The notes under the pieces were generated by a model that ran no database searches, was not told the origin of the DNA, and saw nothing but the letters and a program-made list of their open reading frames with translations. Below are positions 15,059-29,933 of a stretch of DNA of 31,214 nt, in pieces. Both the position numbers and the translations under genes were made by a program. Position 1 is the stretch's first letter. Each line of letters begins with the position of its first letter. Source of the stretch: Clostridia bacterium (lineage in GTDB: Bacteria > Bacillota > Clostridia > Oscillospirales > Acutalibacteraceae); the NCBI GenBank assembly GCA_017631745.1, contig JAGBSR010000063.1, positions 1 through 31,214 on the forward strand. The letters are read 5' to 3'.

Positions 15059-16708
15059 TTACTTTACAATATACACCTTTACGCCGTGAGCTTCGGGAGC
15101 CGCACTTATCATAGTTGTGCCCTCGCTATACTTGTTGTCCCACACATCGTGAACACTGTAGCCCTCTTTTTTGGGAAGACTTACATAGCCGAGGTTTGCG
15201 ATATCCTTGAGCTTGATTTCGGTGCCGTTTTCTTTATTCGTCTTGTTGAAAACACAGATAGCTACAGCGTTGTCCTTAAGAGGCTTAACAAGCACATCAA
15301 CAAGGCCTTTCTTGAATCTTCTGCACTGAATACCTAAGGGATCCTGATTGATAGCGATCATATCCTTGTTGGTGAGAATCTTGTAAACTGCATTTTCTTT
15401 GTCAACTGTGCCGTCGGGAAGAATGAACTTTCTTATGTCATTGCCAAGGATAAGAGGAGCATTCATCATACACCACAGCGAGAAGTGGGCCTTGTTTTCT
15501 TCCTGAGTCAGGTCGCCGTTACCGACTTCAAGCATATCAGGGTCATTCCACGCACCGGGTACCGAGTATTTATAAAGGTTGACGGTAAACTCATAGAGAG
15601 CGAGAATTGACACCCACTTAGCCTGAATATCACCTGTTGTTCTCCAGAGATTACCTGCTTCAGCGCCCCATTTCCAAGGCTGATTGAAGCCCCACTCGCA
15701 GATTGAGAAGATGATGGGCTTTTCCTGTGTACCGTTCTTTTCAGCGTAAAGCTTAGTTGCTCTCTTGAGCTCTCTGCCCATGAGCTTATACTGCATAGCA
15801 GCAGAGTCCATACGTGATTTTATAGGGTTTTCGAGCACAACTGTATTTGTGCCTTTTTCGAGATATACATTCGTCTGAAGCTTACCCTCAGGTGTCCAGT
15901 TTTTACGGCTGACACAATAGATATGATATTCTTCTTTGCCGTTTATAACAGCTCGGATGAACTTCTCTTTGCGCTCATATTTTCTTATGTCAAGGTGAAG
16001 TATGTACTCCCCTGCTTCTTCAGCTTCTACCTCGAGAGAGAGACTGCCAAGACCGCAGTCAAGACCTGCAATATAGTTACCTGTGTCAACTTTTTCGTCA
16101 GGTACAATGTAAGCGTCACCGTTTAATTTCACATCTTTTGAGGTAAAGTAAGCGAAGGTCTCACCTGCACCCTCTTTTGCAAAACCGACACCGATTATCC
16201 ACGGTGCTATCTGAGGAATGGGTACATTGTGGCAGAAGTCATATTTGAAATATTCGATGCCCCATGAAGCAAAGGTTTCAGCATCAATTCTCTCGTTACG
16301 AAGCGATGCAGGATAATCTTCACAGGTGTGTGTACCGTTTGAAGAGTAAATGCCGAGCTTGACGCCGCGGCTGTTGACATATTCGGTCAGAGCTTTGATA
16401 CCGCCGGGGAAATTGACCTTATCACACTGTAATCTTCCGTTTATGTCTCTTTCACTTGCCTGCCAGCAGTCGTCGATGTTGACATATTGGTAACCTGCAT
16501 CAACAAGACCGCTGTCAGCCATAGCATCTGCGATTTCTTTGATAAGATTTTCGCTGATTTTGTGTCGGAAAAGATTCCAGCTTGACCAACCCATAGGAGG
16601 TGTCATCGCTACGCCGTTATTATATGAGCCTTTGCTGACCTGACTTACCTGAGTTTTTCCGATGATTTTTTTAGCGATGCAGATAGGACAAAATTTCTTG
16701 TTTTTCAT
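15059..16708 (-). CDS. Alpha-galactosidase, GH27, with an inserted carbohydrate-binding-like module
   Basis: TPPMGWSSWN, YVNIDDCWQ, YFKYDFC (nucleophile), WRTTGDI (acid/base), WNDPDMLEVGN, HFSLWCMMNAPLILGND. Confidence 0.92.
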   Translation of the reverse strand: MKNKKFCPICIAKKIIGKTQVSQVSKGSYNNGVAMTPPMGWSSWNLFRHKISENLIKEIADAMADSGLVDAGYQYVNIDDCWQASERDINGRLQCDKVNFPGGIKALTEYVNSRGVKLGIYSSNGTHTCEDYPASLRNERIDAETFASWGIEYFKYDFCHNVPIPQIAPWIIGVGFAKEGAGETFAYFTSKDVKLNGDAYIVPDEKVDTGNYIAGLDCGLGSLSLEVEAEEAGEYILHLDIRKYERKEKFIRAVINGKEEYHIYCVSRKNWTPEGKLQTNVYLEKGTNTVVLENPIKSRMDSAAMQYKLMGRELKRATKLYAEKNGTQEKPIIFSICEWGFNQPWKWGAEAGNLWRTTGDIQAKWVSILALYEFTVNLYKYSVPGAWNDPDMLEVGNGDLTQEENKAHFSLWCMMNAPLILGNDIRKFILPDGTVDKENAVYKILTNKDMIAINQDPLGIQCRRFKKGLVDVLVKPLKDNAVAICVFNKTNKENGTEIKLKDIANLGYVSLPKKEGYSVHDVWDNKYSEGTTMISAAPEAHGVKVYIVK

Positions 16709-16763
16709 ACATATATCTCCTTTTAAATAAAATTAGTTTCGTAGCAAATGATGATCTGTTATA

Positions 16764-17076
16764 AATGCAGAATGCAAAATGCAAAATGCAAAATTGCGGT
16801 CGCGGGTGAACAGGTATTAATCTATAGCTTTCTTCCGCAGAGTCAGTCGGGTTAAAATACCAACCGCCGACGATTTTATTAATCTGTTGTAGCCACGGCA
16901 GTTTGGCGGTGCATTGCTTGATTTTTACATCTGACTTCAGGCGGATACAATCGGAGCGAAGCGCCCCCCTATACAATGCACTGAAAGTGCCACGTTATCT
17001 CGTCTCACCTGAAAGGGGCGATGTCACGAAGTGACAGAGGGGTTTATTCTGCACTCTGCATTTTGCATTCTGCATT
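16764..17076. mobile_element. Non-coding MITE-like element with AATGCA(G/A) heptamer inverted arms, copy A
   Basis: 31-nt inverted arms 16764-16794/17046-17076; core blocks match 29490-29720 in reverse complement. Mobility is inferred only from the dispersed second copy. Confidence 0.6.
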
Positions 17077-17109
17077 CATAAAGCCTACCGTAATTTTATG
17101 CACAAGCTT

Positions 17110-18120
17110 TTATATAAAGGCTGCGCTTTTCATAATGAACACCACAGCAAACATACTGAATACCGATAAGATGCTTGTCCAGACCACAAGCTGACCTGCA
17201 AGCTGTTCGTCGCCGCCTATTTCGCTGACCATAACCGCACTTGATACGGCAACGGGAGTCGAAAACAAAGCGATAATGCCCGGGTACTCCGTGGCGGTAA
17301 AATCGAGCACCCCTAAAATGTCAAGAAGCACCGCACCGCCGACACCCACCAAAGGCGCAACAACGAGTCTTAGTACCACTGCCGAAGAGATAGGCTTGAT
17401 GAGGCTTTTTACAGCCGCAAAATCAAATCTTGCGCCGAGCACCACAAGAGCAAGAGGTGACGCCACCTTAGCAAGATTTGACACAGCCTCATAGATAAAG
17501 GGCAGGTCGTTTTTCACCGAAAACACAAGCTGACCAGCTTCATCCAAGGGGATAAAGCTTCTTATAATCAGCACAATTATACCGAGTCCCACACCTCTGA
17601 TGAGAGGATTTTTAGCGGCGCTTTTAAGTGTGCTTTTTATATCGGGATTTGTATTTTTATCTGAATAGTGTGAAAGTATCATAACCGCAAGGACATTAAA
17701 AAGCGGAATTGATACAGCCGAAAGCACACCTGCAAAGGCAAGAGCCTGAGCCGAGCCTAAGGATTCGGCAAGAGGTATGCCGATAATGGCGTAGTTTGAC
17801 CTGAAGGTGCACTGATTTATTACGCCCTTCTGAGCTCTGTGCTGTGAGAAAAGCTTAGCACTTAAATAGCCTATAAGGCACAGAATAAGTATCACCGCAA
17901 CGCAGTAAAAAAGAGCTGACACATTTATCTCGGATATGGATTTTATATCATAGACATTTTTAAACAGCAATATAGGCAGGAACACCTTAAAAACCATAGT
18001 GTTGCACTTTTTAAAGAAGCTGTCGTCAAAGAGCTTTGTCAGCTTTATTATATACCCTGCCACGGCAAGAAGCAATATAGGTGCCACGGCATTGAAAGAA
18101 AAAGAAAAAACTTCAAGCAT
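17110..18120 (-). CDS. AEC family (auxin efflux carrier-like) transporter
   Basis: FKVFLPILLF, FRSNYAIIGIP, PLALVVLGA, PVAVSSAVM motifs; about ten TM segments. Confidence 0.88.
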   Translation of the reverse strand: MLEVFSFSFNAVAPILLLAVAGYIIKLTKLFDDSFFKKCNTMVFKVFLPILLFKNVYDIKSISEINVSALFYCVAVILILCLIGYLSAKLFSQHRAQKGVINQCTFRSNYAIIGIPLAESLGSAQALAFAGVLSAVSIPLFNVLAVMILSHYSDKNTNPDIKSTLKSAAKNPLIRGVGLGIIVLIIRSFIPLDEAGQLVFSVKNDLPFIYEAVSNLAKVASPLALVVLGARFDFAAVKSLIKPISSAVVLRLVVAPLVGVGGAVLLDILGVLDFTATEYPGIIALFSTPVAVSSAVMVSEIGGDEQLAGQLVVWTSILSVFSMFAVVFIMKSAAFI

Positions 18121-25157: not shown

Positions 25158-26048
25158 TTAAACGTCGAGGCCTGCTTCACGCATTCTGTCGAGAAGTACT
25201 GCCTTTGTTGCATCTTCCATTACTGTAAGGGGAAGTCTTACATAGTCTTCGCAGAAGCCCATAGCTGCCATAGCTGCCTTTGCGGGAATGGGGTTAACCT
25301 CGCTGAAGAGAGCCTTGATAAGACCGAAATATTTGAACTGCATTTCAGCTGCGCCCTTTACATCGCCGCCGAGGAACTTGTGTACCATTTCTGATGTTTC
25401 CTTGGGAAGTACGTTTGAAAGAACTGAGATTACGCCCTTACCGCCAACTGACATAAGAGGAATAATCTGGTCGTCGTTACCTGAATAAAGGTCGAGCTTG
25501 TCGCCGCAAAGAGCCATTGTCTCTGTGATTTTGTCAATCTGACCGTTAGCTTCCTTGATACCCTGAATCATGGGGTGGTCAGCGAGAGCTGCATATGTAG
25601 CGGGCTCAATGTTTACGCCTGTTCTTGAGGGTACATTGTAAAGGATAACGGGCTTTGTTGATGCATCTGCAATAGCAGTGAACATCTTGATAAGACCCTT
25701 CTGTGTAGCCTTATTGTAGTAAGGTGTAACAACAAGCATAGCGTCACAGCCGATTTCACAAGCGTATTTTGTAAGGTCGATAGCATAATCTGTATCGTTT
25801 GAGCCTGTACCTGCAATAACGGGTACTCTGCCGTCAACAACCTCAACAGCAAACTTGAGAACATCTCTGTGCTCCTCGTCTGTAAGAGTTGAAGCTTCAC
25901 CTGAGGTACCTGCAATAACGAGAGCGTCGATGCCCTCTTCAATCTGCCAGTTGATGAGCTTTCTGAAATTTTCGTAGTCAACACCGCTCTGAGTCATAGG
26001 TGTGATGAGTGCTGATGCAGCACCGGTAAAAATAGGCTTTCTTTCCAT
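25158..26048 (-). CDS. dapA: 4-hydroxy-tetrahydrodipicolinate synthase
   Basis: GTSGEASTL, IAGTGSN, VTPYYNK, LYNVPSRTG, GIKEA, EVNPIPAK. True start ATG 26048 follows AAGGAG. Confidence 0.97.
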   Translation of the reverse strand: MERKPIFTGAASALITPMTQSGVDYENFRKLINWQIEEGIDALVIAGTSGEASTLTDEEHRDVLKFAVEVVDGRVPVIAGTGSNDTDYAIDLTKYACEIGCDAMLVVTPYYNKATQKGLIKMFTAIADASTKPVILYNVPSRTGVNIEPATYAALADHPMIQGIKEANGQIDKITETMALCGDKLDLYSGNDDQIIPLMSVGGKGVISVLSNVLPKETSEMVHKFLGGDVKGAAEMQFKYFGLIKALFSEVNPIPAKAAMAAMGFCEDYVRLPLTVMEDATKAVLLDRMREAGLDV

Positions 26049-26127
26049 TTTGATAATCTCCTTATATAAAGATATATTTCCGAATTTCAAATTAACATAG
26101 ATTAAAATACTGTCGGTATACCCGACC

Positions 26128-26159
26128 AAAATAAAACACCCGATATTTGCATCGAGTGT
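26128..26159 (-). terminator. Attenuator terminator in the dapA leader
   Basis: Minus strand ACACTCGAT-GCAAAT-ATCGGGTGT followed by TTTATTTT, between the riboswitch and the dapA RBS. Confidence 0.65.
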
Positions 26160-26229
26160 AATACAGCTCAGAAAACAACAGTTTCCGACGATAAGTGATG
26201 AAATATAAGTTTCAAAACCTATCTCAATT

Positions 26230-26390
26230 ATAATAGCACTCCGCAAATGCGACAGTCGGACAAATCTTATTTCATCCGCCCAGGTTGTCTTTCGCCTGAC
26301 ACCTTCGGCAGCAACCCCTTTCACTTCGGCGAGTCTTGCGAGGACTCCTTCAAATGCAAAGCTAATGATGATTAACTGCGCCTCTATCTT
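26230..26390 (-). ncRNA. Lysine riboswitch (L-box)
   Basis: Minus strand ATAGAGGCGC...GAAAGGGG...GCCGAA...CTGGG...CTGTC...GGAGTGCTAT with P1 pairing, upstream of dapA-dapB. Confidence 0.92.
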
Positions 26391-26413
26391 TAATTATTTA
26401 TTCGGTTTAGTGA

Positions 26414-29428: not shown

Positions 29429-29453
29429 GAGATGGGTTCGCCCGTCTCTTTTT
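29429..29453 (+). terminator. Terminator of rpsT
   Basis: GAGATGGG-TTCG-CCCGTCTC-TTTTT. Confidence 0.85.
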
Positions 29454-29489
29454 CTTTTGGCTCTGTAACATAATTATGGTTGATTCTGA

Positions 29490-29720
29490 AATGCAGAGTG
29501 CACTACGATGAATGCAGAATTCAGAGTGCAGAGTGCAGAATTAAGGGTCGCTTCGCTCCGATTATATCCGATTGAGGTAAGATATAAAATCGACGGCGGT
29601 TGGCATTTTAACCCGACTGACTCTGCGGAAGAAACTTATATATCAGCAGAACTTCACCCGCGACCACAATTCTGCATTTTGCATTTTGCATTCTGCATTC
29701 ATTGCAGTGCATTCTGCATT
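29490..29720. mobile_element. Non-coding MITE-like element with heptamer inverted arms, copy B
   Basis: 53-nt inverted arms 29490-29542/29668-29720; core blocks match copy A at 13/13, 49/51 and 21/22. Confidence 0.6.
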
Positions 29721-29933
29721 ATAATAAAATCATCCTATTGGGGGCACAGCCTTTCTTTTTATAAACGTTTATATTCATTACATATTTCCAACACAAAAAT
29801 CTGCGATAATATAATCAGGTGAGTATTATCCTATATTGTTATATAAAAACTTATATATTAATAAAAAAACAATTGAAATTTAACAACTTTCGTGATAATA
29901 TTTACACAGTATCATTTTGGAGGACTCTGTATT

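Follow-up and report, generated by a model that had tools for sequence, protein, structure and literature searches.

Two related elements in the window

The window – the whole 31,214-nucleotide stretch of DNA analyzed here – is a contig (C66) of a metagenome-assembled genome (G000) of 1.99 Mb in 257 contigs. It contains two related elements in opposite orientation, copy B being the reverse complement of copy A (Table 1). Copy A is flanked by the stop codon of a Mem_trans transporter gene on one side and the ribosome-binding site of a GH27 alpha-galactosidase gene on the other.

Both elements have inverted arms built from AATGCAG and AATGCAA units, and these arms are among the longest pairs that an inverted-repeat search returned for the window. 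The 31-nt arms of copy A contain three mismatches, all of them G.T on the minus strand, and the 53-nt arms of copy B contain eight – six G.T on the plus strand, one A.C, and one other. Our recount thus agrees with the 9 of 11 G.T mismatches reported in a preliminary description of this DNA, and the coordinates, identities, and mismatch types given there for the arms were likewise reproduced. That description took the span from arm to arm to be the whole element. While its arm coordinates stand, the inserted units are longer (Table 1).

The sense-strand order of parts is the same in both copies: 5' arm, module M2, linker, module M1, and 3' arm, with a further module, M3, following the 5' arm in copy A only. 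Recomputed identities for the near-invariant blocks shared by the two copies (13/13, 49/51, and 21/22) match those first described, as do the differing segments – one of 18 nt and one of 62 nt in copy A versus 13 nt in copy B. Divergence between the copies is block-wise rather than uniform, as the preliminary description had proposed.

Table 1. Coordinates of the two elements and their parts (positions within the window).
Feature	Position	Strand	Remarks
Copy A, whole inserted element	16735-17108	-	~374 nt; spacer is 401 nt here, 23 nt in G014 and ~40 nt in G005
Copy A, 5' arm (sense strand)	17046-17076	-	AATGCAG-type heptamers, ~4.4 units
Copy A, module M3	16968-17045	-	two short GC-rich hairpins, ~78 nt; not in copy B
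Copy A, module M2	16942-16967	-	plus strand CGGATA..TCGGAGCGAAGCG.CCC
Copy A, segment between M2 and M1	16880-16941	-	62 nt here, 13 nt in copy B
Copy A, module M1	16795-16879	-	holds the 13-nt and 51-nt conserved blocks; adjoins the 3' arm on the sense strand
Copy A, variable loop in M1	16811-16828	-	18 nt, closed by GCGG/CCGC
Copy A, 3' arm (sense strand)	16764-16794	-	complementary to 17046-17076
Copy B, target-site duplication, left	29451-29458	.	8 bp, TTTCTTTT
Copy B, whole inserted element	29459-29751	+	293 nt, in the T-tract of the rpsT terminator
Copy B, left outer terminal inverted repeat	29459-29489	+	GGCTCTGTAACATAATTATGGTTGATTCTGA
Copy B, 5' heptamer arm	29490-29542	+	followed by AATT, GGTCGC
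Copy B, core	29545-29667	+	M2 by the 5' arm, 13-nt linker, M1 by the 3' arm
Copy B, 3' heptamer arm	29668-29720	+	GCGACC, AATT directly before
Copy B, right outer terminal inverted repeat	29721-29751	+	ends in ...GGGGGCACAGCC
Copy B, target-site duplication, right	29752-29759	.	8 bp, TTTCTTTT

Filled and empty insertion sites

The preliminary description had suggested looking for empty sites in relatives. We found them for both copies in the two nearest species (genomes G005 and G014). The spacer orthologous to that of copy A measures 23 nt in G014 and ~40 nt in G005, as against 401 nt in G000, and the G014 protein flanking it is 95% identical. At the copy B locus, alignment of the orthologous regions showed that the flanks directly adjoin one another in both relatives. 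Three further elements, on contigs C15, C226, and C219, are also present in G000 and absent from the corresponding sites of G005 and G014, which brings the number of filled/empty comparisons to five. Parsimony across 2 to 4 relatives favors gain in G000 rather than loss in the relatives.

Copy B is bordered by imperfect outer terminal inverted repeats of ~31 nt (GGCTCTGTAAC... and ...GGGCACAGCC), and beyond them TTTCTTTT is perfectly duplicated (8/8). In G005 and G014, where the site is empty, these 8 bp are present as a single copy. Ends homologous to these outer repeats were identified in the copies on C25, C115, and C146 and in one copy in G014 (contig C36). TTTTATAA is found on both sides of the C25 copy (8/8), and the G014 copy has a 7/8 duplication, AATTAAA(A/T). 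The outer flanks of copy A are homologous to terminal repeats of the copy B type but have diverged, and comparison with the G014 and G005 spacers revealed no recognizable target duplication around copy A. The elements on C15, C226, and C219 end in the heptamer arms themselves; their junctions are somewhat ragged and show no target duplication, and these arms-terminal differences could in principle be losses or replacements instead of insertions.

Outer terminal repeats are rare, being confined to a few G000 copies, one or two in G014, and one miniature inverted-repeat transposable element (MITE) with a different cargo in G019. A strict genus-wide scan for the repeat, using a pattern that proved too rigid, returned only copy B and one G019 MITE. 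The G019 element (G019:C64:86992-87330) is ~300 nt long, with ends like the copy B outer repeats and an unrelated interior that lacks heptamers; because its ends are similar and its interior is not, the heptamer-armed unit looks like cargo of that MITE. Judged by sequence, the G019 MITE shows the outer repeats to be a family independent of the heptamer cassette.

We also observed that the right repeat of copy B and the duplicated T-tract form a new terminator-like hairpin at 29740-29759 (GGGGGCACAGCCTTT followed by CTTTTTATAA), just upstream of a gene for an LRR/Big_2 surface protein.

A repeat family spread through the genus

By sequence similarity, copies A and B belong to a genus-wide repeat family of rumen Acutalibacteraceae. 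Used as a query, copy A matched 57 places in G000, and a search for period-7 TGCA chains identified ~35 arm arrays at ~30 loci in the same genome, many of them at contig ends. At some of these loci two arms enclose 100-500 nt whose content varies, and others have solo arms. The same arms were found in 23 of the 36 genus genomes searched; of 24 genomes searched in other families of the order, one had them. G036 alone encodes more than 40 copies, in a version of ~330 nt, and in G003 and G007 one element occupies each of several consecutive intergenic spacers. The family is thus far larger than the two copies from which it was first described.

Metagenome assemblies gave a similar picture. In the two of four gut metagenome runs that hold the genome, the summed contig depth of the copy A arm bin was ~25-30x the local depth. 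Metagenome contigs end at arms, and other cargos were seen between like arms. Among these contigs, to which the search was confined, there was no decisive empty-site or inversion joint at the copy A or copy B locus.

The elements are strictly intergenic, and their arms often begin 0-6 nt past a stop codon. In G000 and in relatives, arms often start at or inside the upstream stop codon itself (in G000, for example, C219:9068-9075, C134:1326-1332, and C256:640-646). In other cassettes the heptamer often includes TAG or TAA, such that three or more units provide stops in all three frames. We additionally noted cloverleaf-like multi-hairpin palindromes nested in or beside heptamer-armed elements in G000 (C39:590-760, C134:1380-1480, C183:240-330, C23:280-400, and C254:330-440).

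Gene-bearing cassettes with the same arms

The preliminary description predicted that larger copies would carry an ORF, possibly for a four-helix-bundle protein, between the same arms. We identified such a copy at C15:4406-4931, where the arms and M2 surround an ORF of 115 amino acids (C15:4451-4798). The encoded protein matches PF05635 (23S_rRNA_IVP; E = 4e-29) and TIGR02436 ('four helix bundle protein'; E = 5.7e-33), as well as the structures PDB 2RLD (1.9e-40) and PDB 2GSC (6.6e-5). PF05635 is a widespread family (S23p, related to Avd) whose function is a long-standing puzzle.

Within the T-box leader of alaS (C15:4300-4970), the C15 cassette separates the T-run of the terminator from the ribosome-binding site of the gene. 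The hairpin of this terminator has a sequence unlike that in G005 and G014, and the expression platform of the alaS riboswitch may accordingly have been reshaped by the insertion. A second PF05635 gene in G000 (C227:423-737) has arms of another heptamer, AATGAAT/ATTCATT. At this locus (C227:300-1000) the gene adjoins a tRNA gene, and an M2-like GTCGCTTCGC motif is present inside the upstream arm.

PF05635 genes are encoded by 34 of 41 genus genomes, with up to 9 copies each. We listed 31 of these loci, one of which had too short a flank to be scored, and found that 21 of the remaining 30 are armed cassettes. The 21 share a layout – host stop codon, ~4 heptamers, ribosome-binding site, ORF, ~4 inverted heptamers, next gene – and the heptamer sequence varies from cassette to cassette. 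AATGCA-type arms on gene-bearing cassettes are also found in G003, G007, G012, and G036. Across many phyla, inverted period-7 arms flank ~50 of 79 scorable relatives of one gene subfamily, a sample that was picked by similarity to armed genes and hence overstates arm frequency for the family as a whole. A GxxExxY nuclease gene was not found in the 41 genus genomes.

Arm type tracks the clade of the four-helix-bundle protein within the genus, a pattern that common descent explains equally as well as recognition of the arms by the protein. Two G036 cassettes, on C18 and C51, have a common inner junction (GCGGTCGCG / CGCGACCACAA) and unrelated heptamers (AGGAGTN versus AATGCAN), and their proteins are 53% identical. 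This pair suggests a more rapid turnover of the heptamer arrays, in concert on the two arms, than of the inner junction.

Relationship of copies A and B to the gene-bearing form

No PF05635/TIGR02436 ORF lies between the arms of copy A or copy B, and we therefore class them as gene-less derivatives rather than full members of the cassette family. Their relationship to the gene-bearing form can be read from both ends. The cassettes of G003, G007, G012, and G036 consist of a 5' arm, an M2-like segment, a leader, the ORF, an M1-like 3' region, GCGACC-AATT, and a 3' arm. In local alignment with the G003 cassette, the entire 5' arm and M2 of copy B match over 68 columns, and CCGCGACC and the 3' arm match as well; M2 of copy A is part of a 34-nt stretch with 31/34 identities to the same cassette. 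M1 in copies A and B occupies the place of the 3' untranslated region of gene-bearing cassettes.

The segment whose length differs between the copies (62 versus 13 nt) takes the position of the leader and ORF in gene-bearing cassettes, and for this reason the ORF deletion probably maps there. Homology of the 62-nt segment to the ORF leader is partial, comprising the first ~10 nt and a CCGCC motif, and the placement of the deletion beyond that homology is inferred from position. On our reading of the alignments, the block-wise pattern is a mosaic of modules (arms, M1, M2, and optional M3/M4 hairpins) combined with a deletion breakpoint and one fast-evolving hairpin loop. Consistent with its being an optional module, M3 also occurs in the copies on C115, C44, C146, and C181.

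These results suggest that a heptamer-armed PF05635/TIGR02436 cassette gave rise to copies A and B, which are non-autonomous and lack the gene, and that the copy B-type sublineage is a MITE moved in trans – a reading to which we assign a probability of roughly 0.7.

M3 was also observed on its own (C219:4400-4480 and C45:14521-14571), and M3/M4 modules are present outside AATGCAG arms (C219:4380-4560 and C45:14500-14580). The C219 modules are located between 7-nt arrays of the GAATAAT and CTCATCA types, which are not mutually complementary.

Probable transposition of the outer-repeat copies

Copy B combines outer terminal repeats with a perfect 8-bp duplication, and this combination argues for a MITE whose transposase is supplied in trans. 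IS6-family elements make 8-bp target duplications. The inverted repeat of IS257 starts GGTTCTGTTGCAAAGTT (PMC4856351), and its opening 8 nt are the same as the tip of the outer repeat, GGTTCTGT. On these sequence features, the copies with outer repeats are probably moved by a DDE transposase of the IS6 type. Draft genomes often lack IS copies. Within the draft assemblies of G000 and four relatives, no IS6 transposase (PF13610) scored over the cut-off, and neither ISL3 (PF01610) nor IS256 (PF00872) transposases were found in the G000 draft. A weak PF13610 match in G014 was considered as an IS6 partner and rejected, as it is an IS3-type rve transposase with unrelated ends. With its many copies, its empty sites, and the terminal repeats and 8-bp target duplication of copy B, the family bears out the earlier suggestion of a non-autonomous inserted element.

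The most probable history can be outlined from these observations. In its full form the cassette would have a four-helix-bundle gene between two arrays of 7-nt repeats in inverted orientation, and its AATGCAG-armed lineage would have multiplied in this Acutalibacteraceae genus. Loss of the ORF would have left an arm, M2, a leader remnant, M1, and an arm, with small hairpin modules gained or dropped along the way. A sublineage including both window copies would have come to sit inside short outer terminal inverted repeats; this sublineage would enter AT-rich DNA just behind stop codons or terminators and make an 8-bp target duplication. Copies ending in heptamer arms would insert by another route, without target duplication. 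Throughout, the long stem would be maintained as a DNA palindrome.

A more speculative extension, to which we give a low but appreciable probability, concerns the protein. A pentameric four-helix-bundle protein might recognize the heptamer array, with ~1 protomer per 7-nt unit of the 4-5-unit arms, and the protein-hairpin complex might copy, protect, or relocate the cassette. Gene-less copies would then parasitize the protein of the C15 master copy, and such a system would have left heptamer repeats as its footprint in bacteria generally.

Folding, wobble pairs, and orientation

The preliminary description had the elements fold on the transcribed strand. Both strands fold strongly (z-scores -6.2 and -5.4, with 0 of 100 shuffles folding as well) and to the same extent (-113.7 kcal/mol for the opposite strand versus -112), and this claim is not upheld. 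Its companion claim, a sense-strand bias toward G.T wobble pairs, was examined with the sense strand set by ORF or M1 orientation. G.T outnumbered A.C mismatches 25 to 7 over 12 G000 elements, which are not independent copies. Elsewhere the bias did not hold: the ratio was 10 to 14 in G036 (14 scored copies of 20 examined) and 19 to 11 in the 21 gene-bearing genus cassettes. Pooled over these heterogeneous sets, the excess is marginal (p ~0.04). A sense-strand G.T excess would also be expected from strand-asymmetric mutation, and the GC skew of the window is -0.035 on the plus strand, making the minus (sense) strand G-rich. Not robust between genomes and explicable by mutation skew, the wobble bias was set aside as evidence for an RNA. 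The arms are 89-93% Watson-Crick paired and behave as DNA palindromes.

The preliminary description also noted a common orientation of the two copies with respect to local transcription, an observation that extends to other copies. All five M1-bearing copies in co-directional spacers of G000 are in the sense orientation, most G036 copies are oriented with the upstream gene, and the ORF of gene-bearing cassettes has this same orientation. The bias may reflect a transcription effect or a replication-strand effect, which are not separable here. Nothing in these analyses shows the RNA or single-stranded DNA intermediate that had been envisaged.

Transcription through copy A could nevertheless have consequences for its host operon. 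We found no terminator-like site within 16600-17200, making read-through of copy A plausible, and an RNase III gene is present in G000. If copy A is read through in the operon, its arms would form a 31-bp double-stranded RNA stem, RNase III would cut this stem, and the insert would be excised from the mRNA. Given that the co-oriented genes are 23-40 nt apart in relatives, that RNase III is encoded, and that an intervening sequence in Coxiella is cut by this enzyme (Warrier et al. 2016, PMC4990558), we infer excision of copy A in the manner of an rRNA intervening sequence.

Alternative explanations

Two alternatives would make RNA the functional product. A structured RNA on the transcribed strand – processing, stabilizing, or regulatory, selected as RNA, with mobility incidental – would account for the strong fold (z = -6.2), the consistent orientation in co-directional spacers, and the wobble excess in G000. 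We nonetheless consider this reading quite unlikely, as the opposite strand is equally stable, the wobble bias disappears in G036, is slight among the diverse cassettes, and is open to the mutational explanation given above, and the orthologous sites are empty in the nearest species, which leaves no locus-specific function. Moreover, an Rfam covariance-model search produced no match at the gathering score, only chance-level hits (E of at least 0.44) among which the Gut-1 motif was absent, and the consensus structure from 27 aligned M1 copies supports only a 5-bp GCGGG/CCCGC stem. The alternation of conserved blocks with variable segments had further invited a comparison with programmable mobile elements of the bridge RNA or omega-RNA type, in which a constant scaffold presents variable guide loops. 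This proposal fails at the loop. Copy B and the C115 and C146 copies lie at three separate loci and have the same 18-nt loop, the variants of this loop across the 27 M1 copies are point-mutation relatives of one another, and a comparison of variants with their own flanks and the rest of the G000 genome, one of the checks originally proposed, returned no match when as many as 2 mismatches were allowed. The longer of the variable segments is what remains after a deletion, and no copy contains a recombinase gene, such that guide-like function retains next to no probability. Copies A and B do not look like an RNA guide or regulator; they look like inserted DNA missing from close relatives.

Other alternatives concern the manner of movement. 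REP/BIME-like palindromes spread as single-stranded DNA hairpins by a domesticated Y1 transposase (HUH, RAYT, or IS200-type) would explain the arms-terminal copies that lack target duplications and outer terminal repeats, and could turn the orientation bias into a replication-strand effect. The mosaic, modular composition resembles that of BIMEs, another abundant palindromic repeat family exists in G000, and Y1_Tnp matches were detected in three of five genomes (as fragments in G000, G003, and G007). Against such an origin, which we regard as unlikely, G014 and G036 – the latter with the most copies – have no Y1 transposase, the Y1 genes that were found do not adjoin heptamer arrays, and copy B and its kin have terminal repeats and 8-bp duplications, which Y1 enzymes do not make. 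The elements could also be invertons, with the heptamer inverted repeats serving as the sites at which a site-specific recombinase flips the DNA between them, since repeats of 31-53 bp surround 125-250 bp of intergenic DNA and recur at many sites. Frequent flipping is hard to reconcile with the orientation bias relative to genes, and solo arms and gene-bearing forms exist. Between species the polymorphism is one of presence or absence rather than orientation, and neither site yielded a contig in the opposite orientation, although contigs cannot show rare variants; we consider inversion very improbable. Derivation from the gene-bearing cassette, with the copy B-type sublineage moved in trans, remains our preferred reading.

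Comparison with known systems

The closest parallels are the intervening sequences of 23S rRNA in Coxiella burnetii and Leptospira. The Coxiella sequence, which encodes an S23p ORF, has tandem GACAGAT heptamers in a 28-bp stem that RNase III cleaves in vitro (Warrier et al. 2016, PMC4990558). The full-length form described here shares with these sequences its gene family (PF05635/S23p), terminal inverted repeats that form a stem of ~28-31 bp and include tandem heptamers, and tolerance of the insert inside a transcribed unit. Unlike them, copies A and B are located between protein genes rather than in a 23S rRNA helix, and RNase III cutting is here a prediction only. The present elements are also multi-copy with common arms, most copies (including A and B) lack an ORF, and some have outer terminal repeats and target duplications.

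MITEs that derive from IS6-family insertion sequences (IS26, IS257, and ISS1) resemble copy B and its kin in being short, non-coding, and multi-copy, with terminal repeats and 8-bp duplications. The match between repeat tip and IS257 is limited to those first 8 nt, however, and the interior is a heptamer-armed hairpin cassette rather than a deleted IS. Most members of the present family are without outer repeats, and the five genus genomes searched, all drafts, yielded no IS6 transposase.

Intergenic heptamer arrays have been described elsewhere, as inverted pairs of GGGAATC in Xanthomonas (Rehm et al. 2015, PMC4692102) and as TAACTGA repeats in Beggiatoaceae, Cyanobacteria, and Bacteroidetes (MacGregor 2015, PMC4679880). 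Like the arms reported here, these have 7-nt units, often form convergent inverted pairs, and vary in presence among close relatives. The two papers name no gene family and no mobility, whereas the present arrays are the arms of a cassette with a cargo gene. REP/BIME/REPIN sequences with RAYT are similarly abundant extragenic palindromes of mosaic composition placed after genes; they differ in that no associated Y1 transposase was seen here, the arms have a 7-nt period, and the cargo gene is another one. Our literature search found no report linking heptamer arrays with PF05635 outside rRNA, the nearest being the three heptamer studies cited in this section.

Implications

Three puzzles may be connected by these elements: the origin and mobility of ORF-bearing 23S rRNA intervening sequences, the function of PF05635, and the excess of 7-nt arrays in bacteria. 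Our analysis adds to these an arm type that dozens of gene-less copies have in common with a gene-bearing one, five loci compared in the filled and the empty state, and three target duplications suggestive of a named transposase family. The genus offers sister-species filled and empty sites together with marks of transposition, so that mobility and the recognition of arms by the protein could both be tested in the laboratory. With regard to annotation, the elements explain why contigs of these metagenome-assembled genomes break at such spacers, and they counsel caution against labeling heptamer-armed elements as regulatory RNAs.

Other features

A further repeat in G000, beginning GCCCTCGCCGGGCAGGCATTACTTTTT..., recurs on contigs C3, C23, C38, C105, and C256. 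Within the window, a lysine riboswitch aptamer (RF00168, 73.8 bits) was detected at 26226-26394 on the minus strand. Because it overlaps the 5' end of the minus-strand ORF at 25158-26324, the true start of that ORF is probably further downstream.
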